Below, in pieces: positions 41,814 to 59,440 of a stretch of 60,800 nt of DNA. Numbering within the stretch: the stretch's first letter is position 1; every line of letters starts with the position of its first letter. The stretch comes from a virus (lineage: Duplodnaviria > Caudoviricetes). A model generated the notes under the pieces. The model did not search any database. It was not told the DNA's origin and worked only from the letters and a program-made list of their open reading frames with translations. The DNA lies in the IMG/VR virus record IMGVR_UViG_3300038400_000021, positions 1 through 60,800 of that record; one strand, 5' to 3'. The translations under genes and the position numbers were made by a program.

Positions 41814-42302
41814 GGCGCACCGTCCCAACGAAGCCCGCCCAGCGCCGCCGCAAACAACAGTACCCCGAACCCCAGCACCGCCACGATCGGCCACGCGCCG
41901 ACGCACAGGTACAGCACGACGTAGATCGCGAGCGAGAGGACTGAGGCGATGGAGATGGCGGCGGTCATCGGATCCTCACAGCCGCAGCGCTCTCGCCGAT
42001 CCATGGCGTTGCCTTCGCAACCTCAAGGGCGCGCTCCTCGGAGAACCACGCGTATGCCCAGTCGATATGGAAAGAGATGTTGTCCCTGATGTCCGGATCC
42101 TGGACGTAGGCGCCCGAAGAGAGGCGGAGAGCGTATGTGCACAGACCGCCGGTCGATTGGTCACGGGTGGTCATGCCCCTGCCTCCCCGAGATCCAGCTG
42201 CCCGTACTCGACGAGTGTCTCGAACCGAGCGCGGCGCACCTGACGCCGCAGCATGCGGATCCAGCGACGCACGTCGGCGTCGGTGTAGACGTAGTGGGTC
42301 AT
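41810..42302 (-). CDS. Three small genes (41810-41968 membrane protein, 41965-42174, 42171-42302)
   Basis: ATGA overlaps. Confidence 0.55.
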
Positions 42303-42319
42303 TGGACGCCTCGACAAGT

Positions 42320-42529
42320 TCCCTGATCGAGCCGCTGTTTCATGCGGGGACTCCACGAACCCGGTCGCGTCTTCTCGACGCGAACCATGGCGGCTCGATC
42401 AGAGGGATAGGGCACCCCGCCCACATGCATCGCGACGCAATCGGAGGAAGGCGCCAGTCTCGCGGAGTCCGTGCGGGTAGGTGACGCCGCGGACTTCGAC
42501 GCGAGACGCGAGTGCAGTGGGCGGAGTGC
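42320..42529 (-). ncRNA. Candidate structured RNA (two multi-stem domains)
   Basis: 13-bp stems 42323-42335/42390-42402 and 42412-42424/42517-42529 with nested hairpins. Confidence 0.5.
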
Positions 42530-42543
42530 GAAAGGGGTGGCGG

Positions 42544-43158
42544 TCACGAGGATTTTCTCCTCGCGCGCTCACGTGTGATTGGTCCTTCGGCGTGACGCCA
42601 CAGCCGTCCAGTACAGATGCCGCTGACGTTGGACTTGTGAGTCCCGAACCTCGATGCGAGATCGTCGAGCGAAGCGCCGGCCGCCCTCATCGTTCTGAGG
42701 GCCAGAACGACATCCTCTGTCAGTTTGGAATTATAGACCTTTGAGCCTTTGGCGTGGCGCGCCCGGCCTCGGTCTCGCATGTCCTGCAGGTTGTCCGCCT
42801 GTGTTCCGACGAGGAGATGGGACGGCGACACGCACAGTGGGCGATCGCATGAATGTCGGACTACCATCCCGTCGGGAATGGGGCCGTTTGCGATGATGTA
42901 CGCAACTCGATGGGTTTGGCGTCGGCGGTTGTTGGAATGAATGACGCCGTATCCCTTCCTATTCTTGGCGCCAGACCAAAGAAGGCACTCGCCGTCCGGC
43001 CTCGTCCTCGACCAAAAGTCCGCAACGCGGGCCGGCGTCATACCAATCCGGAGTGCAGCGTCGGCGCTCACTGCGCGAACGTCCCGTTCTTGCGATCCTG
43101 CGTCGGCGGATTCATCATGCGCGCCATGCGAATTGGCCTGAGCATCGAGCGGCGTCAC
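42544..43158 (-). CDS. HNH endonuclease with C-terminal HTH
   Basis: CLLWSG..GYG, THRVAY, RHSCDRPLCVSPSHLLVGTQADN, SKLTE. Confidence 0.9.
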   Translation of the reverse strand: MTPLDAQANSHGAHDESADAGSQERDVRAVSADAALRIGMTPARVADFWSRTRPDGECLLWSGAKNRKGYGVIHSNNRRRQTHRVAYIIANGPIPDGMVVRHSCDRPLCVSPSHLLVGTQADNLQDMRDRGRARHAKGSKVYNSKLTEDVVLALRTMRAAGASLDDLASRFGTHKSNVSGICTGRLWRHAEGPITRERARRKSS

Positions 43159-43382
43159 GATGCGCCCTCTCCGAACAGTTCGCCGATCGTGCAGTCGAGG
43201 GCGCGAGCAACCTCGATGATCATCGAGCCGCTTGGAATGCTCCTGGACTTCTCCCAGTGATTCACGGCACTCCGGACGACGCCAAGCTTTGCTGCGAGCT
43301 CGAACTGGCGCATCCCGATCGCCACCCTTCGCCTTCGGATCCGTTTGCCTACAGCGGCTTGCTTCCCAGTGAGCGTCCTCAT
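43155..43382 (-). CDS. Cro-like XRE HTH regulator (leaderless)
   Basis: GMRQFELAAKLGVVRSAVNHWEKSRSIP. Confidence 0.85.
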   Translation of the reverse strand: MRTLTGKQAAVGKRIRRRRVAIGMRQFELAAKLGVVRSAVNHWEKSRSIPSGSMIIEVARALDCTIGELFGEGAS

Positions 43383-43441
43383 CGTTCTCACAGTAGACAT
43401 TGATTCAACCACGAGTCAAGCCGAGTCGAACCAAATTCTAC
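43383..43441. promoter_or_regulatory. Leftward promoter TTGACT-18-TACTGT-7-ATG with operators O1 (43393-43409) and O2 (43425-43441)
   Basis: 17-bp imperfect palindromes GTAGAC-N5-TTCAAC and GTCGAA-N5-TTCTAC. Confidence 0.75.
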
Positions 43442-43461
43442 CGACCCACGTGATATCGCGT

Positions 43462-43842
43462 ATGTACATGGCCGATCACCGCTCGCACAAAAAGTACCCA
43501 CGCGGGCCACGTTTAGGAGTCACGAAGGAATGGAAGTCCAGGGTGCTTGAGGCGCTAGCGTTAAATGCCGAAGCCGGCCGTGTTCCAGCGAACCCGACTG
43601 ACCTCGCCCGACTGCTCGGTAGCGACAAGGCCGGCATCCACAAGTTGCTGTTCACCGATCAGCAGGCGTCCAAGTACATGCGGGCTATCTCGCAGATGCT
43701 CAACATCAGCGAGGCCTACGAGCCCGTCGTGGATGACGAGTGGGCCGGGCTGGTAGCTGAGTTGCGAGCGCAGCCTAACGATGTGCAGCAGCATGCACTG
43801 CAGATTCTGAGGACCTTTGTTAAGCGACTCGACAAGCCGTAG
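43462..43842 (+). CDS. CI-like repressor (HTH, no S24 peptidase domain)
   Basis: Divergent from cro; PTDLARLLGSDKAGIHKLL HTH; start at 43462 or 43468. Confidence 0.7.
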   Translation: MYMADHRSHKKYPRGPRLGVTKEWKSRVLEALALNAEAGRVPANPTDLARLLGSDKAGIHKLLFTDQQASKYMRAISQMLNISEAYEPVVDDEWAGLVAELRAQPNDVQQHALQILRTFVKRLDKP

Positions 43843-43885
43843 CGCGCCCTTGACACAGTGAGCGCATCGGCGCAATCCTGGCTCG

Positions 43886-44032
43886 ATGCGGGGACGCGAT
43901 GTGGTGATGTCCGAAATCGCCGAGTTGCTCAAGCGGCTCGAGCATGAGGACCCGGTCGCGTTCAGAGCCTGCGCTGAGCGGATTCGCACGCTCTATCGGG
44001 CGGTTGAAAGAAAGTCTACCAAGAGGGGTTGA
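43886..44032 (+). CDS. 48-aa helical protein with leaderless promoter TTGACA(43850)-18-AATCCT-6-ATG
   Basis: MRGRDVVMSEIAELLKRLEHEDP...; consensus -35. Confidence 0.5.
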   Translation: MRGRDVVMSEIAELLKRLEHEDPVAFRACAERIRTLYRAVERKSTKRG

Positions 44033-44063
44033 CGTCACGGGCTGGTAGAACTAGATTCTACCC
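44003..44063 (+). promoter_or_regulatory. Rightward early promoter TTGACG-17-TAGATT-6-ATG with operators O3 (44003-44019) and O4 (44045-44061)
   Basis: GTTGAA-N5-GTCTAC and perfect GTAGAA-N5-TTCTAC over the -10. Confidence 0.8.
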
Positions 44064-45523
44064 ATGCCTTCGACGTCACCCCTCGCGATCTCTCCGGTCG
44101 CCCACCTCCCCATCGGCTCCGTCGTCGTCTGCCCTGACGGCCTCGTCGGCGAGCTGACCTCCACCATCCTCGACGGCCGCGTCTCTGTGGTCCACGCGGA
44201 CCTCTCGAACGGTCGCGGCCCGTGGGAGTTCTTCGCCACGCAGCTGACCAGCGCGACGCCGACGCAGCGCGCCGACTACTGGTGGCGCGTCGAGCTGCAA
44301 CTCCGCAACGACCGCGCTCCGGTCACCGCGATGCGCATCGTCCGTCGGCTGTACGACGCCGCTCGCTCGGAGTTGGCGTAATGAGCGCCGCCTCCGACGG
44401 CCGTCTCGACGGTCAGGTCCACGCGATCCTCGGCAAGCCCTGCGACCCGACCGGCGCGTTCATTCGCACGCTCGGGCACATGGGGATCACCGAGACTGAC
44501 CGCGCGGAGTTCGTCGCAGCGTACAACGCCGCGTACACCAAGGAGTGCGAGTCGATGAGGAAGGAGGGACGGCTGTGACCGCCTCCCAGCTCACCGCCCT
44601 GGTCGTCCTGTTCGCGCTCTGCACCGCGCTCGCAGCCTCGATGAACGCAGCACTGCCCAATTGCTCGGCCGCGGACATCCTGACCAGGGCAGGCAACAAC
44701 GCCGCGATGGCGATCTCGTACCTCGGGGAGGAGTCGTGAGCGCTCGACGAATCGTCCTGCGTCGCCAGTACCTGAGCTGGCTGACAGCCTCTCGACGTCC
44801 GCTGTGGTCGTTCGCAAAGTGGCTGCGCGCCAAGGCGGTGCAGCCATGAAGCGCCCACTCCCCATCATCGACGTCGGCCAGCAGTTCCTCTCGTTCGCGC
44901 GTGACGAGCGCCCTACACCGCCGCCCGCTCCACGGTTCGCCGCCGACGAGACGGGACGCGCGTGGATCCTGGCGAAGGGAGGACGGTCGTGAAGGACGAC
45001 GCCGCGACGATCAGGATGCTCAAGCACGATCTCGCGGAGGCCGAGGACGGATTGCGCAAGTTCGCAGCCGATCTAGAGCGCCACCCGGCCAGCGCGTTCG
45101 AATGGTCCGGTCCGGCATTCGAGGCTGCCGCCGTCAAGTTCGTGTTCACCAAGGTACTGGGCATGCTGAAGGAGTCTCCGCACCTAGATGTACTCGACAA
45201 GGTCCAGCGCGAGGTCGTGATGCGCGCCAAGCGGGGCAGCCGCTCAACGAGCGACGCGTCGAACCTGATGCAGGCCGAGGTCATGACGGCATGGGCGCGG
45301 GCTCTGGACCTGCTGCAGTACACGGAGCGTGCGCCATGACCATCACCCAACTCCTCTACTACCTCGCCGGCGTCGCGACCTGCTACGTCGTCATCGGTCG
45401 GCTCGCCAGAGTCGCGCGCTGGTTCCGGAGGTCGCCATGAAGCGCCACCTCGCCAACGCGCTCCGCTACCACCTCATCGCAACCGTCGCGCTGCTCCTGT
45501 GGCTCGACAAGGACCGCAAGTGA
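44064..45523 (+). CDS. Eight small coupled early genes (44064-44381, 44381-44578, 44575-44739, 44736-44849, 44846-44992, 44989-45339, 45336-45440, 45437-45523), several hydrophobic
   Basis: Continuous stop/start overlaps with SD motifs. Confidence 0.6.
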
Positions 45524-45532
45524 ATCGACATA

Positions 45533-45627
45533 CGCTCCCGGGCAAGGCGGCGCCCTGCTTGGCGGTGCCGGGCTTGGCAAGCCGTGGCACGGCTCGGCTG
45601 TCCGATGCACTGCACTCCACACCAAGG
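45533..45627. repeat. Degenerate pentanucleotide array, 19 units of C-N-N-N-(G/C)
   Basis: C at every fifth base from 45533 to 45623; intergenic. Confidence 0.85.
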
Positions 45628-45635
45628 GTTTCTCT

Positions 45636-46370
45636 ATGACTGCAGCTCTCGATCTCGACCTATCCGACATTCACACCCGTCCGACGATGGACATGAAGCC
45701 GTTCCCGCTCGTCGACGTCGGCCCGCTCCCCGGTGCGTGCGAGCAGACCTTCGTCGGCCAGCCGCCGCCCGAGCGCCTGCCGTACGCCCGACCCGCTTGC
45801 ATCCTGCCGAGCCTCGACGAGCTAGTCGACGCCGACGGGGTTAGGCTCGAGGAGAAGCTGAGCGACTTGGCTGCCAATGTCGCCGGTGATTCGCATTGCT
45901 CCGACGACGACCTGTGGACGTTGATGGGATCCAAGATGCATGTCAGGGCCATCGCACAGCAGCTCGGCGCCACCGAGATGGCGCTCGCGTCCCGCGACGA
46001 GCGGATCGAGCGCCTCGGGCAGACCACTGCGCAGCTGTCAACCGACCTGCGCCGGACGCTGGACCAGCTGACGATCGCCCAGGGCGTCGCCGCAGCGCTG
46101 CAACGCAAGCTGGACGGTGCGGACCGGGCCGTGTCGACCACGGCCGCCGAGCTCTACGCCGAGCGCAATCGGACCTGCGACCTCGAGTTGCACCTGCGCG
46201 TCGAACGTCAGCGCCTCGAGCGCGAAGCGATCCTGCACAACGAGAACATGACGCGCCTCATCAAGCGCACGGCCGAGGTGTGCCGGCTACAGAAGGATGT
46301 CGCGCGGTTGACCGAGGATTGCAACGTGCTGCGGGCCGCGCTGGAGAAGTGCGAGAGGGGTGGCAAGTGA
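45636..46370 (+). CDS. Coiled-coil protein
   Basis: Heptad-rich C-terminal half. Confidence 0.65.
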   Translation: MTAALDLDLSDIHTRPTMDMKPFPLVDVGPLPGACEQTFVGQPPPERLPYARPACILPSLDELVDADGVRLEEKLSDLAANVAGDSHCSDDDLWTLMGSKMHVRAIAQQLGATEMALASRDERIERLGQTTAQLSTDLRRTLDQLTIAQGVAAALQRKLDGADRAVSTTAAELYAERNRTCDLELHLRVERQRLEREAILHNENMTRLIKRTAEVCRLQKDVARLTEDCNVLRAALEKCERGGK

Positions 46371-46672
46371 AGGTCTCGCTTACAACGCACGATGGGCCAC
46401 GACTAGTCGTGGCGAAGGTGTTCGGAGACTGGTGTGTTCACTCGGTGTTCTCCATCGAGTACGGGTCATTGCAGGCGGGCCTCGATGGCTTCCGTGTGTC
46501 TCACGTTCCGACCGGGTACAGCATAGCTAGCCTCGCCGACGACATGACAGAGGCTGACGCGGTCGCGGTCGCTAAGTCACTCAACAGGGCGAAGCTGGAC
46601 GTCTATGACTCCGACGCTGTGTGCATCGCCCAAGCTGCAGTCGGTGCTGCTCTCTCGGAGCCGCCGACCTGA
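46367..46672 (+). CDS. Hypothetical protein (SHVPTG motif)
   Basis: GTGA overlap. Confidence 0.6.
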   Translation: MKVSLTTHDGPRLVVAKVFGDWCVHSVFSIEYGSLQAGLDGFRVSHVPTGYSIASLADDMTEADAVAVAKSLNRAKLDVYDSDAVCIAQAAVGAALSEPPT

Positions 46673-46679
46673 CTCTTCC

Positions 46680-46746
46680 GCCACCCCTCGTCGCCTGACG
46701 TTGGAGGCATCTGCGAACGGCGGCGAGGGCTGGCACTACTTTTCAC
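46680..46746 (+). terminator. Long hairpin followed by short U-tract (terminator/attenuator candidate)
   Basis: CCCTCGTCGCC/GGCGGCGAGGG plus GCCA/TGGC, then ACTACTTTTC. Confidence 0.45.
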
Positions 46747-46758
46747 AGGGGGACTGCA

Positions 46759-47328
46759 ATGAACAAGGACAACTGGGCTGCGGTGTACGACGAGAACGGC
46801 AGGCACATCGCGACGAGGAACGGTCGCGGCGAGATGAAGTCACTGGGCTACTCGGACGAGTCTCCGCCGCACGTGGCACTCGAGATCCGCGCGGCGGAGC
46901 TGGCGCTCGGTGCGGACAACACGCTGGCCGAGCACGACGGCTACATGGCGCACTTCGATGGGAAGGACCCGTCCGACGATGGCTGGGCCGGTTGGCTCGA
47001 GCGCGAGATCGGGACCGGACTGACCGATCTCGAGCGCGAGAACGAGGAGCGGATCAAGGATCGGGTCAAAGAGGAGCTCGGCAAGCTGCCGCAAGATCCT
47101 CCGCCGCCCGAGTGGCAGGCGAAGGTGCACTCCGAGTGCGACAAGATCGACGCGGCACACTTCGACCTGCAGGCCGAGTCGTCGCTCGACACGATCGACC
47201 AGTCCGAGCCGGCGCCCGCGCCCGAGGCGCAACTCCACGACGTGCACAGCGACGACGAGACGACGCACGTGGGCGAGGCGCCGGTGGTGGTCGATGCACT
47301 CTTCGACCAGACGGAGAGCGAGTCGTGA
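46759..47328 (+). CDS. Highly acidic early protein
   Basis: Asp/Glu-rich 189 aa; AGGGGG RBS. Confidence 0.7.
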   Translation: MNKDNWAAVYDENGRHIATRNGRGEMKSLGYSDESPPHVALEIRAAELALGADNTLAEHDGYMAHFDGKDPSDDGWAGWLEREIGTGLTDLERENEERIKDRVKEELGKLPQDPPPPEWQAKVHSECDKIDAAHFDLQAESSLDTIDQSEPAPAPEAQLHDVHSDDETTHVGEAPVVVDALFDQTESES

Positions 47329-48001
47329 GTCGCCGCGGCAAGATGATCAGCTCGGTCCATCAGGTCGCGTGGCATCGCAACGGCGTCGGAGGCGAAGGCT
47401 TCCACGCGGTTGTGTTCGACACCGAGACCGAGCACTGCGCCAAGTGCAATGGGTTCGCGACTCTCGGCATCAACGGGCTAAAGCAGACCGTGTGCATGTC
47501 GTGCGGTCCGACGTCGGCGGAGACGTCAGCAACGAGGATGGTCGCGATCGTGTTCGACGGGCCGGGTCAGGTTGCCGTGCTCGACATCGCCAAGCTGTCC
47601 GACCCGGCTGTCGGCGTGGCGTTCGGCGAGAACTCGTGGCGCGGTGACCAGTACGAGGCCGAACTGAGGTCGGCCATCAGCACCGAGGATTCCGATGGGT
47701 CTGTGCGCATCGGCCCGTTCGCTGTTCCGACCAAGCGGAAGGCCAAGCCATGACCTGGTCCACCGCCGACGCGCTGACCTACGCGCACCACCTGCTGGAC
47801 TGCCCGATCGATCCCGACAAGTCCGGCACCACGCGACTGGCCGAGGCGTTCTTGGCGCTGCATGCGGAGACGGTGCGGTTGCGGCTCGCCGAGACCGACC
47901 GGCTGATCCTGCAGACGCTCGCGTGGGATCGGCAGGCTGGCGAGACGTGGCCGGTCGCGTGCGAGGTGATCCAGAAGTGGATCGAGAGGAATGGGCTGTG
48001 A
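47325..48001 (+). CDS. Two genes: 47325-47753 (HRNG...NSWRGD protein with CxxC-CxxC insert) and 47750-48001
   Basis: Overlapping stop/start. Confidence 0.65.
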
Positions 48002-48007
48002 AGTTTT

Positions 48008-48351
48008 CGCCGATCCATCCCGGTTCGGACTGCGCACCGCTGGTCGAAAGCCAGATCCTAACCGGCGCGCAGCGAGACCGCAATGCAGGTACGCGCGAGA
48101 GCGATGCCCTGCAGCTGGGATTGATTGGCGTCTCTTCTCGCCGGCCAGCACCGAACCCGTCGACGTGTCCTGCCCCCTGCGCGTCGATGGCCCCCACGGT
48201 TCCGGGCCGGCACTTCTCCAGTCGACCGGCCTCGCACGTCCTCCTTGTCAGCTGTGCGTTCGCTGGGGTCGGTAGGTCGCAAGCTGCGCCTGTGCAGTGG
48301 AGATCGCAGGAGGTGGGGCGCCGCACCATGTCTCGTGGCGCAACTTTCTTT
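48008..48351 (+). ncRNA. Candidate large structured RNA ending in an intrinsic-terminator-like hairpin
   Basis: Three consecutive multi-stem domains, GNRA loop, hairpin 48318-48341 plus U-tract. Confidence 0.55.
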
Positions 48352-48367
48352 CGAGTGAGGAGATGAG

Positions 48368-49201
48368 ATGACCGCACGACTGCTCGATGTGACGCCAGAC
48401 GCCTATCATCAGCTGCCAGGGCTCTCGAAGTCGTACGCGACCACGCTCATCCAGCGCTCTCCGCTGCACGCGTGGCAGGAACACCCGGCGCTCGGCGGCG
48501 GCACCAAGAAGCCCACGAAGCTGATGGACCGCGGGGCGGTCCTTCACGCGCTCGTGCTTGGCAAGGGCGCCAGCTTCGCGCCGTGCCCGTTCGACGACTG
48601 GAAGACCAAGGCAGCCCAGAAGACGCGGGACGACTACCGCGCGGCCGGACTGATTCCGGTGCTCAGCGAGGACCTGCACGCCTACGAGGTTGCAGCCAAG
48701 GCGATCCGCGCGCGTCTCGAGTCGTCGGGTCGGTTTCTGGCCGGCAAGAGCGAGGTGGCGATCGCGTGGCAGGAGCCCTCGAGCGTCGGCCCGGTCGACT
48801 GCCGGTGCATGATCGACCACCTCGACGTCGAGCAGGGGCTCTCGTACGAGCTCAAGATCAAGGACGACGTCAACCCGGAGAAGATTGAGGCGTCGACCGA
48901 GCGTGAGCTGTACTCGATCGGCGCCGCCGCGTACATCCGCGCGATCGCCGCTCTATATCCGGACCTCGCCGGCAAAATCGAATTCCGCTACGTGTTCGCA
49001 GAGCCGAACCCGCCCTACGCGATCTACGCACCCGAGCCGGACGGCGTGTTCCTCGAGGCCGGAGAGAAGCACTGGATGCGCGCCGTCGACGTATGGGGGC
49101 GATGTCTGAAGACGCAGTTCTGGCCCGACTACCAAGAGTTCAAGTACATCAGCCGCCCCCAGTGGGCGTTGCGGAAAGATGGGTACGCCTACAATGAGTG
49201 A
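48368..49201 (+). CDS. RecE/exonuclease VIII-like PD-(D/E)XK nuclease (DUF3799-like)
   Basis: YH..PGLSKS, G..LHALVL, SEV, CRCMIDHL, ELK, Q/GAAAY. Confidence 0.85.
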   Translation: MTARLLDVTPDAYHQLPGLSKSYATTLIQRSPLHAWQEHPALGGGTKKPTKLMDRGAVLHALVLGKGASFAPCPFDDWKTKAAQKTRDDYRAAGLIPVLSEDLHAYEVAAKAIRARLESSGRFLAGKSEVAIAWQEPSSVGPVDCRCMIDHLDVEQGLSYELKIKDDVNPEKIEASTERELYSIGAAAYIRAIAALYPDLAGKIEFRYVFAEPNPPYAIYAPEPDGVFLEAGEKHWMRAVDVWGRCLKTQFWPDYQEFKYISRPQWALRKDGYAYNE

Positions 49202-50249
49202 CCGATTCGACGACGAGCCCGTGGACGTCGACTTCGAGGATCAGGGCGACGAGGACCAGCCCCGCGCGAACCAACTGGTTCGACGCAGCTTCGAGGGCGT
49301 AGCGACCCTGATGAACAACGCGGCCACGCAGGCGCTGACCGCGAAGGCCACGGCCGACATCAATGCGCGCTGGATGATCGCGATGCACCGGCCGCGGCAG
49401 CTGATGGACGTGCGCTCGGACATGCTCAAGGAGTGCTCGCGTCCCAAGTTCGCAGGGAGCGCGATCTACGCCGTGCCGCGAGGCAAGACGATGATCCGCG
49501 GGCTCTCGATCCGCTTCGCCGAGGCGGCCATGAAGGCGATGGGTAACATGGGCGCCGAGGCTCAGACGCTCTACGACTCCGAGGAGGAGCGCACCGTGCG
49601 CGTCACGGTAACCGACTTCGAGGGCAACACCGCGTGGTCTCGCGACCTGACCATCAAGAAGACCAAGGAGATCCGGTTCCTCAAGAACGGGCAGAAGCCG
49701 ATCCGCCAGCGCACCAACAGCTACGGCGACACGGTTTACATCGTCGAGGCCACGGAGGACGACGTCACGACGAAAGAGGCCGCGCAGATCAGCAAGGCGA
49801 GCCGGACCGGCATCCTCCGACTCGTGCCAGCGTGGCTGCTCGCCGAGTGCCAGGAGCGGTGCGAGCAGACCATGGCGAACAAGGCCGCAATCGACCCCGA
49901 CGCCGAGCGCCGCAAGGTGTTCGACGCGTTCGCCGGGCTCAACGTGAAACCGTCATGGCTCGCGGACTGGCTCGGTCACCCGCTGGAGCAGGCGACGCCC
50001 GCGGAGATCGTGCTCCTGCAGCAGCTCTACCGAGCGATCCGCGATGGGGAGACGACGCTGGACGACGCGATGAAGTCTCGCAAGGCGCAGGCAGAGAAGC
50101 CGAAGGTCGAGCCGCAGCAGAGTGGTGTCGCCGCGGCAGCCAAGCCACGACCGGCGCGCGCCAGCAAGCAGGAGCATGCCACTGCCACCGACGGCCCAAC
50201 GCCAGAGGAGCAGGCCGAGATCGCGCGGCTGGAGAGGGAGGGAAAGTAG
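49194..50249 (+). CDS. Putative single-strand annealing/recombination protein
   Basis: Follows the exonuclease; HRPR...YAVPRG..IRGLSIRFAE..GN motif. Confidence 0.6.
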   Translation: MSDRFDDEPVDVDFEDQGDEDQPRANQLVRRSFEGVATLMNNAATQALTAKATADINARWMIAMHRPRQLMDVRSDMLKECSRPKFAGSAIYAVPRGKTMIRGLSIRFAEAAMKAMGNMGAEAQTLYDSEEERTVRVTVTDFEGNTAWSRDLTIKKTKEIRFLKNGQKPIRQRTNSYGDTVYIVEATEDDVTTKEAAQISKASRTGILRLVPAWLLAECQERCEQTMANKAAIDPDAERRKVFDAFAGLNVKPSWLADWLGHPLEQATPAEIVLLQQLYRAIRDGETTLDDAMKSRKAQAEKPKVEPQQSGVAAAAKPRPARASKQEHATATDGPTPEEQAEIARLEREGK

Positions 50250-50250
50250 C

Positions 50251-50835
50251 ATGACAAAGCCGATCACAATCTCCACACCGGTTCTCGCAGCCATCATCAA
50301 GTGGTCGTATCAGGAATCTGACCGACCACATCTGCGCACGGTGCTATTCGAGAATGGTCGAGCGATAGCGACCGATGGGCACCGTCTCGTTGTACTTCCG
50401 ATCAAAACGAACAGCCATCGCCTGCTCGTGGACAGCCAGCATCTTGCGGCTGCGATCGCCGCCCAGCGCGACCTGAAAGTTACCCGTGCCGAGCGCGAGA
50501 TCGGCATCGAGCCGTCTGGACCAAACGTCACGCTGACGATCGACAAGGGCATCAGCGTGACCGTCCCGGCGCGCAATCCCGAGAGCTTCCCACCGTGGTC
50601 GCAGGTCATTCCTAAGGTCGACCAGGACGCTAAGGCGCCGCACGGCTACATCCTGGATCCGCGGTACCTCGCCGCTATCGCCGAAGTCAACACGGCGCTT
50701 GCTCCACATGCACAGCGCGGCGTACGAGTGGTCGCTTGGTCGCCGACCGACGAGGACGGCCAGCAGCTCGGCGCGATGCTGTTCGAGGGATATGAGGGTG
50801 TTCGGTTCGTCGTGATGCCGATGAGGTGCGTGTGA
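50251..50835 (+). CDS. Truncated beta sliding clamp (DnaN)-like protein
   Basis: RPHL..V, ATDGHRL, FPPWSQVIP, DPRYL, VVMPMR. Confidence 0.75.
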   Translation: MTKPITISTPVLAAIIKWSYQESDRPHLRTVLFENGRAIATDGHRLVVLPIKTNSHRLLVDSQHLAAAIAAQRDLKVTRAEREIGIEPSGPNVTLTIDKGISVTVPARNPESFPPWSQVIPKVDQDAKAPHGYILDPRYLAAIAEVNTALAPHAQRGVRVVAWSPTDEDGQQLGAMLFEGYEGVRFVVMPMRCV

Positions 50836-55537: not shown

Positions 55538-55837
55538 ATGAGCCGCCCGCTCACCGTCGACGATGTGCCGATGCTGGTGGAGGCGCTTGCGAGGCGACTG
55601 GAATCCGGAGGAACCTTCGCGCCGGGAATCGGCGCACGTGGTCAAGGAGACCAATGCGACGAAGAAGCGAAGGACCTAAAGCATATGGACCTTACAAGCA
55701 CGGAGACAAGTGGCGCATCCAGTTCGTTGCAGGACGCGGAGTCGATCGGACGTCGACATATGAGGCGTTTGATACGTGGGAGCAGGCCGAGCGCTGCCGA
55801 GCAGCCGCGACTGACGAAGCGCAAGGCGTCACGGTGA
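55538..55837 (+). CDS. Hypothetical protein overlapping the integrase 5' end
   Basis: ORF with GAGG RBS; overlaps int by 184 nt. Confidence 0.35.
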   Translation: MSRPLTVDDVPMLVEALARRLESGGTFAPGIGARGQGDQCDEEAKDLKHMDLTSTETSGASSSLQDAESIGRRHMRRLIRGSRPSAAEQPRLTKRKASR

Positions 55838-56721
55838 GCGACGCCATCGACGCGTTCATCGCCGCAAAGCTCGCCGGTGGACTGCTCGAGTATACCGTTG
55901 ACGGGTATCGCAACGTGCTGACCACGATGCTCGGTCACGTCACGCGGCGACCGGTTCGCTATCTGGTCAACCGCGGCGTCGAGCTCTACCTGAGAGCCCA
56001 GACGTATCCGGTTGGCCACAAGCGCGCCGGTCAGCGGAGGTCGGCCGCGTACCACCAGGCGGCGCTCGAGCGTGCACGCGACCTCGGCCGGTTCTGCGTC
56101 AAGCAGAAGTGGCTCAAGGTAAACCCGTTCACGGAGGTCGAGAAGATCGGCCGGCGCAACCACGGCTCGGACAAGGTCCGGCTGACCGTGGACGAGTCGC
56201 GCAAGCTGTATGAGTGGTGCTTGGCGCATACCGACCAGAAGTACGCGGTTCTGACGTTCGGGTACCTACTGCTCGGTGCACGAGCCTCGGAACTGATCAA
56301 GCGCAACGTCCGAGACCTGGACGACGGCGGGCGAATGCTGTGGATCGGAAAGACCAAGACGCTTGCCGGCCAGCGCTGCCTCATGATCCCGGAGCCTCTT
56401 GCCGTCGCGCTGACCGCGCTCACGTCCGGCGCGGCGACTGATGCTCCGATCTTCACGGACGAGCACGGTTGCCGCATGAGCCGTCAGATGGCGCGCATCC
56501 GGGTGCTCGAGGTCTGCGCCGCGGCGGGCGTGACGCAGGTGTCGCCGCAAGCACTACGCCGCACGCAGGCAACGCTCGCGACCACGGCCGGAGCGACCGC
56601 GTTGGACGTCGCCCGTCACCTCGGCCATGCATCGACCGCGATTGCCGAGCGGTCGTACATCGATCCGACCGCAGTCACGACGGCGAGGACCGAGCGGGCG
56701 CATCTCCGGCTGGTCCGGTAG
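55654..56721 (+). CDS. int: Tyrosine integrase
   Basis: GARASE (R), KTKT (K), QALRRT, HLGH, RSY; AAGGAG RBS. Confidence 0.9.
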   Translation: MRRRSEGPKAYGPYKHGDKWRIQFVAGRGVDRTSTYEAFDTWEQAERCRAAATDEAQGVTVSDAIDAFIAAKLAGGLLEYTVDGYRNVLTTMLGHVTRRPVRYLVNRGVELYLRAQTYPVGHKRAGQRRSAAYHQAALERARDLGRFCVKQKWLKVNPFTEVEKIGRRNHGSDKVRLTVDESRKLYEWCLAHTDQKYAVLTFGYLLLGARASELIKRNVRDLDDGGRMLWIGKTKTLAGQRCLMIPEPLAVALTALTSGAATDAPIFTDEHGCRMSRQMARIRVLEVCAAAGVTQVSPQALRRTQATLATTAGATALDVARHLGHASTAIAERSYIDPTAVTTARTERAHLRLVR

Positions 56722-57422: not shown

Positions 57423-59440
57423 ATGAACCCGAAAGAGGCACCGACGACAATGGACGAGCATCGAGAACGAGATCATCGCGACACTGGGTCCGACGACCGA
57501 CGACAACCGGGCGGCGCGGATGAGTTTCCCCCCGTTGTCACCACCGAGCACGGTCCGTTCTGCCGCAACTGCGGAGACCCGTTCAGCGAAGCCGAGGGCA
57601 ACCTCAAGTTTCGCGGGGCCGTCGGTCCGCGCTGGCGCCCGTGTCCAAATCCCTCGCCAGGGAGGCCGCTGGTCGACTGCGGCATCGGAGGCCACATGTA
57701 CACGCTGAGCGATCTGCCGGAGGCGCCGACCTATGACTGACCTGCCCGGATACGACGCATGGAAGTGCCGCGAACCAGACTTGGCCGCGGAGAATGCGAC
57801 CGAGCACGTCGACATCGACGAGCCCTCTGATTCGTCAATCGAGCGCCTGCTTGAGGACGCGAGGCTCGGCGACACCGTGGCCAGTGTGACGCTCGTCGAG
57901 GCGTGCGAGCGAGCCCTCGACGCTGAGTCTTCTGAAGAAGAAGCGCGGAGCGCGAGACAGCACATCCGCGACTACCTCAGCAGCCCAACGCTGACCACCA
58001 CCCGCCCCACGCAGAAGGATGGAACCCCGTGAAAGAGAAGAACCCTGTAGAGACCGCGATCGACCGCTACCATTCGTCCATGCTCGACATGACCGTTGCG
58101 CGAGTCGCCAAGGAGATGGCTGGCCGCGACCTCGATGAGGCAAAGGCCAGGTACGAGTCCGCCATGGACCGCCTCGCCGCAACGCAGGACGCATCAGATG
58201 CGGCCAAGGTCGCGTTGCGCGAACGCTTGATGCAGGCGCTCGCTGAGTCGATCGCACCCACGCAGAAGGATGGATGAGCATGAGCGATGAGAACAAGATG
58301 GTCAGATGGCACAACAACGGACGCGGGCCGCGCGTTCTCGTAACGCTGGGCGGCGAGGACGTCATGATCGACGTTGTGCGCGCCAGGAATCTGTACGTTG
58401 CGCTCGGTCAGGTGTTGTACCAGATCGAGGCCAGCGGCGGACGCACCGATCCGAGAGGAGATCACAGGGAATGAAAGTCATCGTGTGCAAGGACGACGAC
58501 GCTGAGGCGCTGATCGCCAAGATGAAGCTCAAGGAGCGCGAACTGATCGACAGGTTCGCACAGCAGGACGCGCACCAGCGGTACGTAGCCACCGAGGTGA
58601 CTCGCGGCCTGATGTACGTGCTCATCGACTGGCTGCAGGCGCAGGGGTTCAAGACATCATGACCATCACCACCTCTCAGCTCGACGAGCTCGAGCGACGA
58701 GCGCTTGTGCACAGAAACCACGGCAACAGCGCAACGATCAGCGTTCCACTTGACGTCACGCTCCAGCTTGTGGAGATCGCGCGCGCGGCGCTGGCGTGGA
58801 GCGAGCGACTCGACACAGTCGACGAGTACCGCTGGCATCCCTATGAGCGCGAACTGTATCGCGCATTGCGAGGCGCCCCATGACCACCGACGCACGCGCG
58901 CTCATCGAGGAGGGTCGCCGTCAGCTCGCGGTGCTGGAGACCAGCGGCCTGTCTCGGGTCCGCGCGGAAGCATGGGACTGGCTGTGCAAGCACCATGGCG
59001 AACTTATCGAGGGGTACAGCGCGGCGCTGGACGAGATGGAGCGACTGCGAACCGACCTCGCCGCAAGCCGACAGCGCGCCGGTGATGTCGAATCGGAGTT
59101 AGCCCGCGTCCATGCCGACACCTCGATGGTCGACGAGATCGGCCGTCTCCGCACCTCCCTCGCCGAGCAGGCCTTCCAGCTCGACTCCGCGCACCGCTAC
59201 GCCAACGTCCTCGAGCGCGACAAGGCGGAGCTGTGCACGGCGAATGAGCAACTGCGCTCAGATCTGGAAGCCTCCCGCGCTATCAACCGCCACTACGAAC
59301 AGGAGCACGACTCGTGGGGCGAGGCGTACAAGCAGCGCGCGGCGAAGACGGATGCAAGGATCAAGGAGCTGGAAGAGGAGGTGGATCGGATGCGGAAGGC
59401 GCTGCAGCGAGCGCACCTCCGCGAAATCAACAACCAATAG
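57423..59440 (+). CDS. Seven small coupled genes (57423-57740, 57733-58032, 58029-58277, 58274-58474, 58471-58662, 58659-58883, 58880-59440)
   Basis: Stop/start overlaps. Confidence 0.6.
58006..58274 (+). repeat. 18-bp direct repeat CCCACGCAGAAGGATGGA (58006-58023, 58257-58274) flanking one gene
   Basis: Exact match; both upstream ORFs contain PTQKDG at their C-termini. Confidence 0.85.

Follow-up and report, generated by a model that had tools for sequence, protein, structure and literature searches.

What is encoded in the 366 nt that separate a small gene, orf83, from an exonuclease gene in the early operon of the uncultivated soil phage IMGVR_UViG_3300038400_000021? The window, by which we mean the whole stretch of DNA that was analysed, corresponds to a single complete virus record (60,800 bases, G+C content of ~66%), and the gap in question occupies positions 48002-48367 of its plus strand. 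A first-pass annotation had proposed that this gap holds a large, undescribed RNA of three domains with a possible loop-terminator switch, placed upstream of the recombination genes. Our analysis confirms the feature: it does not code for protein, part of it is structured, and no described family covers it; most likely it is an ordinary kind of transcription control region. Our leading interpretation, which we put forward tentatively, is that the gap serves as a structured, untranslated leader or attenuator, acting in cis to gate the exonuclease/annealing module.

The gap is non-coding

An open reading frame (ORF) of 122 codons (47998-48366), which had been flagged as a caveat to the RNA proposal, is indeed present and fills the gap exactly: its GTG overlaps the stop codon of orf83, and its own stop lies 1 nt before the exonuclease ATG. 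This exact fit, together with a low GC content at codon position 2 over the first 40 codons, favours a protein encoded in this or another frame, but composition and codon use argue against it. The GC content by codon position is 0.63/0.63/0.69 in the 122-codon frame, and we found no periodicity in any frame on either strand. The third-position value of 0.69 compares with 0.87-0.92 in the neighbouring genes (0.63/0.49/0.92 by codon position in orf83 and 0.65/0.45/0.87 in the exonuclease gene). A codon log-odds score trained on 21 confident genes gave negative values, from -0.20 to -0.56, for each of the six frames across the gap; these lie in the off-frame range and under the minimum of 0.133 among 71 coding chunks. 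The 122-aa translation had no homologue among 1.84 billion representative proteins and no match in Pfam or PHROG. Nor is the frame kept. In a variant of the region from another metagenome run (X3, described below), insertions of 1, 3 and 1 nt fall inside 47 nt, a net gain of 5 nt that breaks the frame, and since these insertions occur at 92% likeness no reading frame is compatible with the variant. An ORF that fills the gap is unsurprising at 66% G+C, where one opposite-strand frame is likewise open across the gap. These results answer the caveat: the gap is truly non-coding, and we regard a protein product as extremely improbable.

The gap did not resemble a described RNA either. Searches against Rfam 15, which includes riboswitches, ribozymes, EAR, 6C and phage RNAs, gave no match at the gathering score in the whole window and none at E-values up to 10 in 47700-48700. 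The description of the RNA as undescribed therefore holds, also with regard to the families with C-rich loops.

Two domains are folding outliers

All stems and loops listed in the first-pass annotation were found where it had placed them, and the minimum-energy fold from RNAfold recovers domains 1 and 2 and the last hairpin of the gap. Domain 1 (48008-48130, plus strand) is a three-way junction of 123 nt with 43 pairs and a minimum free energy (MFE) of -61.3 kcal/mol. Its imperfect inverted ends of 16 nt (48008-23 and 48115-30) make up the outer stem, in which 48008-48015 pair with 48123-48130 and 48017-48021 with 48117-48121. Inside lie CTGCGC/GCGCAG (48030-35 and 48067-72), CTGGT/GCCAG (48040-44 and 48050-54), TGCAGG/CCTGCA (48084-89 and 48108-13) and CGC-GAGA-GCG (48094-48103), with GAAA-type and GAGA loops as hairpin caps. 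The pyrimidine linker UCUCUUCUC (48131-48139, plus strand), one of four pyrimidine runs of at least 9 nt in 44-60.8 kb, leads to domain 2 (48140-48211, plus strand), an irregular hairpin of 72 nt with an MFE of -38.3. It consists of a base stem, GCCGGCC/GGCCGGC (48140-46 and 48205-11), and an apical stem of 12 bp (48157-68 with 48179-90) that carries a C-rich loop of 10 nt; a second CCCCC forms a bulge. The remaining 'domain 3' (48212-48300, plus strand), with the tract or loop UCCUCCUUG at 48240-48, is a weakly structured spacer. Pair probabilities in the whole-gap ensemble were 0.75-1.0 for the stems of domains 1 and 2 and the hairpin, with those of domain 2 at 0.87-1.0.

Comparison with shuffled sequences separated these parts. 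On the sense strand, domain 1 reached a z-score of -4.78, with none of 200 shuffles as stable, and domain 2 a z-score of -3.36 (2/200), or -4.22 (0/200) when extended to 48131-48220. The region of the last hairpin (48300-48355) gave -1.89 (8/200), while domain 3 gave +0.96, with 168 of the 200 shuffles as stable. Both outliers are biased towards the sense strand: on the opposite strand the z-score was -2.58 (2/200) for domain 1 and +0.07 (93/200) for domain 2, which fold less stably there because several of their pairs are G-U. Random sense-strand segments of 123 nt from the phage never reached a z-score of -3 or below (0/110; minimum -2.43), and in a blind scan of fixed 100-nt segments 48001-48100 ranked 5th of 346. 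Among 4046 overlapping segments, domain 1 ranked 23rd by GC-corrected energy and 111th by raw energy. Domains 1 and 2 are thus real folding outliers, in the tail of the distribution yet not unique. Two of the three proposed RNA domains stand, and the third does not.

A terminator-like hairpin precedes the exonuclease gene

The gap ends in a terminator-like hairpin with a U-rich tract (48315-48352, plus strand; -14.2 kcal/mol). Its 7-bp stem (48318-24 with 48335-41) has five G-C/C-G pairs and one G-U pair, its loop measures 10 nt, and its pair probability in the whole-gap ensemble is at least 0.99. The U-tract, CUUUCUUUC at 48344-52, has 6 T in 8 and starts 2-3 nt past the stem, or directly adjoins it if G48315 pairs with C48344. 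It ends 5 nt upstream of the Shine-Dalgarno sequence GAGGAGA, which with the exonuclease ATG, read from the sequence, spans 48357-48370 on the plus strand. The G+C-rich hairpin and the U-rich tract of an intrinsic terminator are both present, and the loop is longer than the usual 3-8 nt. With loops of up to 10 nt allowed, a relaxed scan returned this hairpin as its sole plus-strand match in 44-60.8 kb, out of 19 matches genome-wide on both strands. T-rich 8-mers (6 T in 8) form nine plus-strand clusters in the genome, two of them in 44-60.8 kb. The hairpin and U-tract reported by the first-pass annotation are therefore borne out, and they are the sole such signal that the relaxed scan detected on the sense strand of the early operon.

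Two further candidate features of this region were rejected. The linker UCUCUUCUC can base-pair with the Shine-Dalgarno sequence of the exonuclease gene (48357-63), and in the whole-gap MFE structure its partner is 48357-48366. Occlusion of the ribosome-binding site by the linker was dropped, as the pair probability is ~0.5 and the accessibility of the site (0.17-0.46, depending on context) falls within the range at 16 other gene starts (0.00-0.65). A leader ORF of 12 codons that would start at an AUG in the terminator loop (48328) and stop 1 nt short of the exonuclease ATG was discarded because a T>C change at 48329 in a contig from run X2 removes the AUG.

Variants of the gap in other metagenomes

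Near-identical pieces of the gap region were present in contigs from four other metagenome runs. One of these runs, X3, is labelled as cDNA and marked as probably DNA, and we did not take it as evidence for transcription. A contig of 151 bases from X3 aligns to 48007-48130, which is exactly domain 1, at ~92% likeness with 9 differing and 5 inserted letters, whereas the 16 letters before the domain fall below the 80% threshold. Five of the six substitutions listed are unpaired, the sixth turns a C-G into a U-G pair (A-C on the other strand), and all three insertions lie at loop edges or helix ends. The chance of at least five of six substitutions being unpaired is 0.011 under a uniform model, a figure that overstates the support because the variant positions cluster into ~3 independent events.

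Other contigs preserve different parts. A second X3 contig carries the end of orf83 unchanged and diverges directly after 48001, and a third keeps 48284-48392 with a single change (1/109). The X2 contig contains 48299-48372 with 2 changes in 74 positions, then ~465 other bases, after which the exonuclease gene resumes at 48368; its coding part differs at 47 of 783 positions. In the X4 contig, 48194-48398 is present with six changes and four small indels, the latter at 48275-48283. The block of hairpin and ribosome-binding site is thus near-identical in the X2, X3 and X4 contigs, and because in X2 it precedes a different stretch of ~465 nt, it travels as a control module. The extra ~465 bases between this block and the exonuclease gene in X2, a soil metagenome, probably hold an additional small gene that uses the same ribosome-binding site. 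Homology to the contigs of other samples breaks at 48001/48002, at ~48284-48299 and at 48372/48392. Judged from these alignments, the gap is a mosaic junction in which domain 1 and the hairpin block behave as separate, well-kept modules.

Homologue searches and related loci

More distant relatives of the gap did not emerge. A blastn search of 47750-48700 against 50,697 phage records gave no match, and three exact gap patterns had no match each in IMG/VR. Against 106 fetched loci, blastn (word size 7) returned only chance matches to the gap and nhmmer none, and single-protein locus searches with the exonuclease and with the protein encoded after it (phrog_3657) likewise yielded none. Domain 1 is a single-copy sequence in the phage. 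A covariance model of this domain, R1, found only the domain itself in the window and 99 loci (L002-L100, with L101-L107 left out), the next best hit having an E-value of 5.5; it found nothing at E <= 0.1 in three records (best 0.152) and matched none of 151 Polyangia genomes. BLAST of the gap against 401 Myxococcota genomes gave matches of 20-83 nt in 47 genomes; these fell on both strands, and most of them involved the GC-rich domain 2. These matches were judged compositional: in four that were aligned with domain 2, neither the stems nor their partners were kept. The near-identical contigs were therefore the only relatives of the gap to be found, and these searches gave no homologue distant enough for covariation.

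We also compared the gap with the loci that encode the seven closest exonucleases. Three of these (L002, L028 and L052) have a non-coding gap directly before the exonuclease gene, of 388, 144 and 121 nt, with z-scores against shuffles of -3.42, -3.83 and -2.74, respectively, and none of the three has sequence in common with the gap studied here. A structured spacer ahead of the exonuclease module is therefore frequent among these loci but not required. Other gaps of the phage itself were excluded as comparators, since the gene list, which is based on third-position GC content, overlooks genes in which this value is lower. The L002 gap (2421-2808 of that locus) shows no codon periodicity and contains several long palindromes around repeated cores of the CGCCGGCGCC type. 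The exonuclease encoded there is 45% identical to that of the phage and has an N-terminal extension of ~60 aa.

The proposed loop-terminator switch

The first-pass annotation had further suggested that the loop of domain 2 can pair with a segment abutting the terminator and may thereby control it, and had tentatively linked the gap to an element near 42.3 kb. The pairing itself exists. The domain-2 loop (48168-81) pairs at 13 of 14 positions with 48305-18, and an extended version (48165-81 with 48305-21) at 16 of 17. Its partner is a G-rich segment with AGGAGGUG (48305-48321, plus strand) that overlaps the first 4 nt of the hairpin stem, so that the 16/17 pairing reaches 4 nt into the terminator stem and the 13/14 version merely abuts it. 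A second tract, 48126-39, which includes the linker, is complementary to 48310-23 at 13 of 14 positions. Control of the terminator could then take the form of an anti-terminator pseudoknot between the domain-2 loop and 48305-48318/21, or of a 'zipper' with the linker region 48126-48139. A switch is conceivable in energetic terms because the two states are near balance (-31.7 kcal/mol for the duplex, compared with the sum of -18.5 for the apical stem-loop and -14.2 for the terminator hairpin), and a leader with such logic is described for pLS20 (PMC13401043).

Nothing singles the switch out, however. A 13/14 pairing occurred somewhere in 76% of 200 shuffles and a 16/17 pairing in 17 of 150. With G-U pairs counted, any pyrimidine tract is a match for the G-rich segment, which makes the pairing unremarkable. 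The domain-2 loop lies outside all variant contigs and hence comes without variation. The complementarity was thus correctly described, it does not exceed chance, and the specific switch seems to us very improbable. The connection to the 42.3-kb element is not supported: when the gap was compared with the rest of the window by short-word BLAST, neither strand of 42300-42420 produced a match. That element (42318-42406) is a hairpin of ~89 nt with a near-perfect stem of ~16-19 bp, TCCCTGATCGAGCCGC ... GCGGCTCGATCAGAGGGA, which follows the last minus-strand gene; 42301-42420 folds with an MFE of -57.5 as plus strand and -55.4 as minus strand.

A leader that may gate the recombination genes

How might the gap work as a leader? 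RNA polymerase would start near 44.03 kb, ~3.9 kb upstream of the gap, and would transcribe orf83, domain 1 and domain 2 before reaching the hairpin and U-tract. These would act as an intrinsic terminator or attenuator that divides the first early genes from the recombination module, so that the exonuclease, its partner protein and the later genes would be made only when polymerase reads through. Read-through might be brought about by an antitermination function of the phage or by a different fold that the leader adopts. Once transcription has terminated, domains 1 and 2 of the resulting RNA could serve as a protective structure at the 3' end, as an element that sets the level of read-through, or both. 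Transcription of the gap from the 44-kb promoter match, a stop at 48352, regulated read-through and these roles of domains 1 and 2 are all inferred.

The interpretation draws support from the non-coding character of the gap, the sense-biased stability of domains 1 and 2, the sparing of the domain-1 helices by natural variants, a terminator-like signal that is unique in the operon, the preservation of the hairpin block in three other metagenomes, and the stable non-coding gaps of three among the seven related loci. Several observations weigh against it. As a whole, the gap is no more stable than its shuffles (z-score of -1.39 with 10/100 on the sense strand; +0.69 with 74/100 on the opposite strand). 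The domain borders were picked after the fact, and by GC-corrected energy domain 1 is outranked by, among others, some coding stretches. Its variation comprises one one-sided compatible change and no two-sided, covarying change in a single variant, and three of the nine differences in that variant are not listed; these probably fall close to the ends of the contig and thus in the outer stem. The X3 contig that diverges after 48001 indicates that domain 1 can be missing or replaced in a relative. The loop of 10 nt speaks against the hairpin as a terminator, and the U-tract is broken by a C; a standard terminator scan (loops of 3-8 nt) found no site in 45000-50500, missing the hairpin because its loop exceeds 8 nt. 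Scans of early proteins against Pfam and PHROG brought up no antiterminator. Among the related loci, the gaps of L002, L028 and L052 fold about equally well on both strands, which fits DNA palindromes as well as RNA, and in the other four of the seven (L003, L004, L007 and L055) a gene abuts the exonuclease gene without a gap, so a leader is not required for this module. A bolder version of the leader hypothesis, in which domains 1 and 2 represent a new phage RNA family that acts on polymerase in the manner of put or EAR, or a riboswitch-like RNA, and decide on read-through with the C-rich loop and 48305-21 as the switch, appears improbable.

Some of the same observations would be expected if the gap were mosaic-junction DNA without a dedicated function, an exchangeable linker whose stability stems from GC-rich palindromic DNA and from selection of the best stems, and which at most includes a plain terminator. 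The breakpoints within and around the gap fit this explanation, as do a different gene upstream of the exonuclease in every relative, the four loci without a gap, the low whole-gap z-score with its unstructured domain 3, the rank of domain 1 and the strand symmetry of the comparator gaps. It accounts less well for the sense-strand bias of domains 1 and 2, the avoidance of helices by the listed variant changes, the preservation of domain 1 next to 16 poorly kept letters, and the lack of random segments at a z-score of -3 or below. We consider it unlikely, though with an appreciable chance of being correct. The stable domains and the terminator-like 3' end would also suit a trans-acting stable RNA of ~345 nt, the 3' end or a processed piece of the early transcript, whose C-rich loops would base-pair with host or phage mRNAs at G-rich ribosome-binding regions. 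Small RNAs derived from 3' untranslated regions and small RNAs with C-rich loops are known in high-GC bacteria, and domain 2 offers both a C-rich apical loop and the second CCCCC bulge. Such an RNA would have no promoter of its own (no sigma-70-like site in 45000-50500) and no Rfam match, known C-rich-loop families included, and the best complement of the loop is in cis, at chance level. We regard a trans-acting role as distinctly unlikely.

Alternatively, the hairpins may be RNase III or RNase E sites at which the polycistronic early RNA is cut, so that the upstream message would gain a protected 3' end and the recombination message a defined 5' end. By analogy, long irregular hairpins between genes of one operon are compatible with such processing, and in L028 and L052 large hairpins of a comparable kind are found 20-45 nt upstream of the ribosome-binding site of the exonuclease gene. 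As the U-tract after the last hairpin is unnecessary for processing and four of the seven relatives lack any gap, we think that a processing or stability element has only a small chance of being the explanation. Finally, the gap could act at the DNA level: as an origin of replication, as a site of recombination or protein binding, or as a small mobile element bounded by inverted repeats. The X3 alignment is delimited by the inverted ends of domain 1, and the palindromic gaps of relatives fold alike on both strands, with repeated CGCCGGCGCC-type palindromes in that of L002. Conversely, the gap contains no repeats or iterons, no repeat common to other gaps of the early region touches it, and it has no AT-rich stretch. 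The G-U pairs favour the sense-strand fold, and the C-G to U-G change would create a mismatch on the other strand. With regard to a miniature inverted-repeat element, domain 1 does have terminal inverted repeats (48008-23/48115-30), but multiple copies were found neither in the phage nor, by covariance model, in the 151 Polyangia genomes searched; BLAST of 401 Myxococcota genomes gave no convincing copy. A DNA-level site is highly improbable on this evidence.

Comparison with known control elements

For the leader interpretation, the early operon of lambdoid phages may serve as a functional model, with the put RNA of HK022 and the zipper-type attenuator of pLS20 as the nearest mechanistic relatives by analogy. 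In phage lambda, the intrinsic terminator tL1 lies ahead of exo-bet-gam and is overcome by antitermination. The gap resembles tL1 in that a hairpin and U-tract, in sense orientation within an early operon, precede recombination genes and would delay them until read-through. It differs in that the Pfam and PHROG scans of the early proteins identified no N-, Q- or nut-like component, that the hairpin has a 10-nt loop and ~300 nt of structured RNA ahead of it, and that its function as a terminator is predicted. The eps-associated RNA (EAR) of Bacillus, a structured RNA of ~120 nt between operon genes that is said to promote terminator read-through, is similar in size and in its position between genes inside an operon. 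It comes from another phylum, and the gap has neither an Rfam match up to an E-value of 10 nor any homology found to it. The RNase III sites in the early genes of phage T7 are single hairpins of ~60 nt with an internal bubble. They share with the gap the presence of irregular long hairpins in gaps of a polycistronic phage early RNA; here, in contrast, a three-way junction is followed by a second hairpin and a U-tract, and a cleavage site is only putative.

The put RNA of HK022 has ~70 nt and two stem-loops in a V shape; putL lies just after the early promoter and putR ~270 nt after it, and as a cis-acting folded RNA in the early transcript put lets polymerase pass terminators without a protein factor (PMC9378689). 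A cis-acting folded phage RNA in an early transcript is what the two systems would share, and this is the sense in which RNA-based antitermination had been suggested for the gap. Compared by description rather than by sequence, the gap differs from put as portrayed there: it has a three-way junction of 123 nt and a hairpin of 72 nt, ~3.9 kb from the sole promoter-like site of the consensus scan, so that neither the size and shape nor the promoter proximity of a put-type RNA was found. The cATT attenuator of pLS20 (Firmicutes) is a 456-nt leader that opens a conjugation operon; its long imperfect stem-loop is preceded by a tract that can pair with the 5' side of the intrinsic terminator further down (PMC13401043). 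Set against that description, the gap is likewise long (366 nt), contains a long imperfect stem-loop and has the complementarity of 48126-39 with 48310-23. This complementarity is at chance level (76% of 200 shuffles), however, and the leader is internal to a phage operon.

The early operon and its other features

Genes of the phage lie on the minus strand up to ~42.3 kb and on the plus strand from 44.06 kb to the end of the window, so that the early operon with the gap extends over ~17 kb of the plus strand. A sigma-70-like match, TTGACG-17-TAGATT (44029-44057, plus strand), is the sole site in 42300-45100, by consensus match only, and the same scan found none in 45000-50500; the rightward early transcript through the gap presumably begins there. 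The segment 44001-44100 is the strongest local fold of the early region (z-score of -5.1 in a 100-nt scan). Within it, the palindrome GGTAGAAcTAGaTTCTACC overlaps the promoter-like match and resembles an operator at an early promoter, and CTTTCTTTC is present on the minus strand. By eye, 43160-43850 looks like an immunity region, with a minus-strand ORF that ends near 43160 and has a helix-turn-helix-looking sequence, a divergent plus-strand ORF at ~43530-43842 and a low-GC spacer between the two.

The gap is flanked upstream by orf83 (47750-48001, plus strand), which encodes 83 aa and has no family: Pfam and PHROG gave no match, and no homologue precedes the exonuclease gene in the fetched loci. 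Downstream, the gene at 48368-49201 (plus strand) encodes a PD-(D/E)XK exonuclease of the RecE/exonuclease VIII-like type (DUF3799), with matches to phrog_412 'exonuclease VIII' (E-value of 5.6e-42) and PF12684 (DUF3799; E-value of 4e-06) and with 87 homologues, one of which, 97% identical, is encoded on a 2.5-kb contig. The closest homologue from a named genome, at 52% identity, belongs to a Kofleriaceae metagenome-assembled genome, and because of this a myxobacterial host is possible, though weakly founded. The next gene (49179-50249, plus strand) encodes a protein of 356 aa that matches phrog_3657 (E-value of 3.3e-55, function not annotated), with no Pfam match and no relative in the PDB. 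Among 40 matching phage records, those of Ralstonia and Acinetobacter phages are the best, with identities of ~40-43%; the annotation is hypothetical throughout. Such proteins accompany these nucleases in other phages, and by its position we presume it to be a candidate single-strand annealing protein of an unnamed family. The 194-aa protein encoded at 50251-50835 is ambiguous, matching both a 'RusA-like resolvase' PHROG (E-value of 2.7e-13) and a 'DNA polymerase processivity factor' PHROG (E-value of 1.1e-07). A 38-nt direct repeat (58006-58043 and 58257-58294; 76% alike, the first 18 nt identical, 251 nt apart) is located downstream of the integrase gene (55834-56721, phrog_1) and could mark arm sites of an attachment site. 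A scan for tRNA and tmRNA genes found none.

Implications

In practical terms, what these results offer at present is negative evidence: the ORF can be dismissed as a gene, the switch does not rise above chance, and within the searches made the element occurs only in a few near-identical phages. The gap would be of greater significance only if domains 1 and 2 modify RNA polymerase or bind a ligand. If the leader interpretation is true, an uncultivated high-GC soil phage would gate its recombination genes by a long folded leader and a terminator. The logic would be that of lambdoid early operons, built from unrelated parts, and the gap would represent one more undescribed cis-regulatory RNA of phages.

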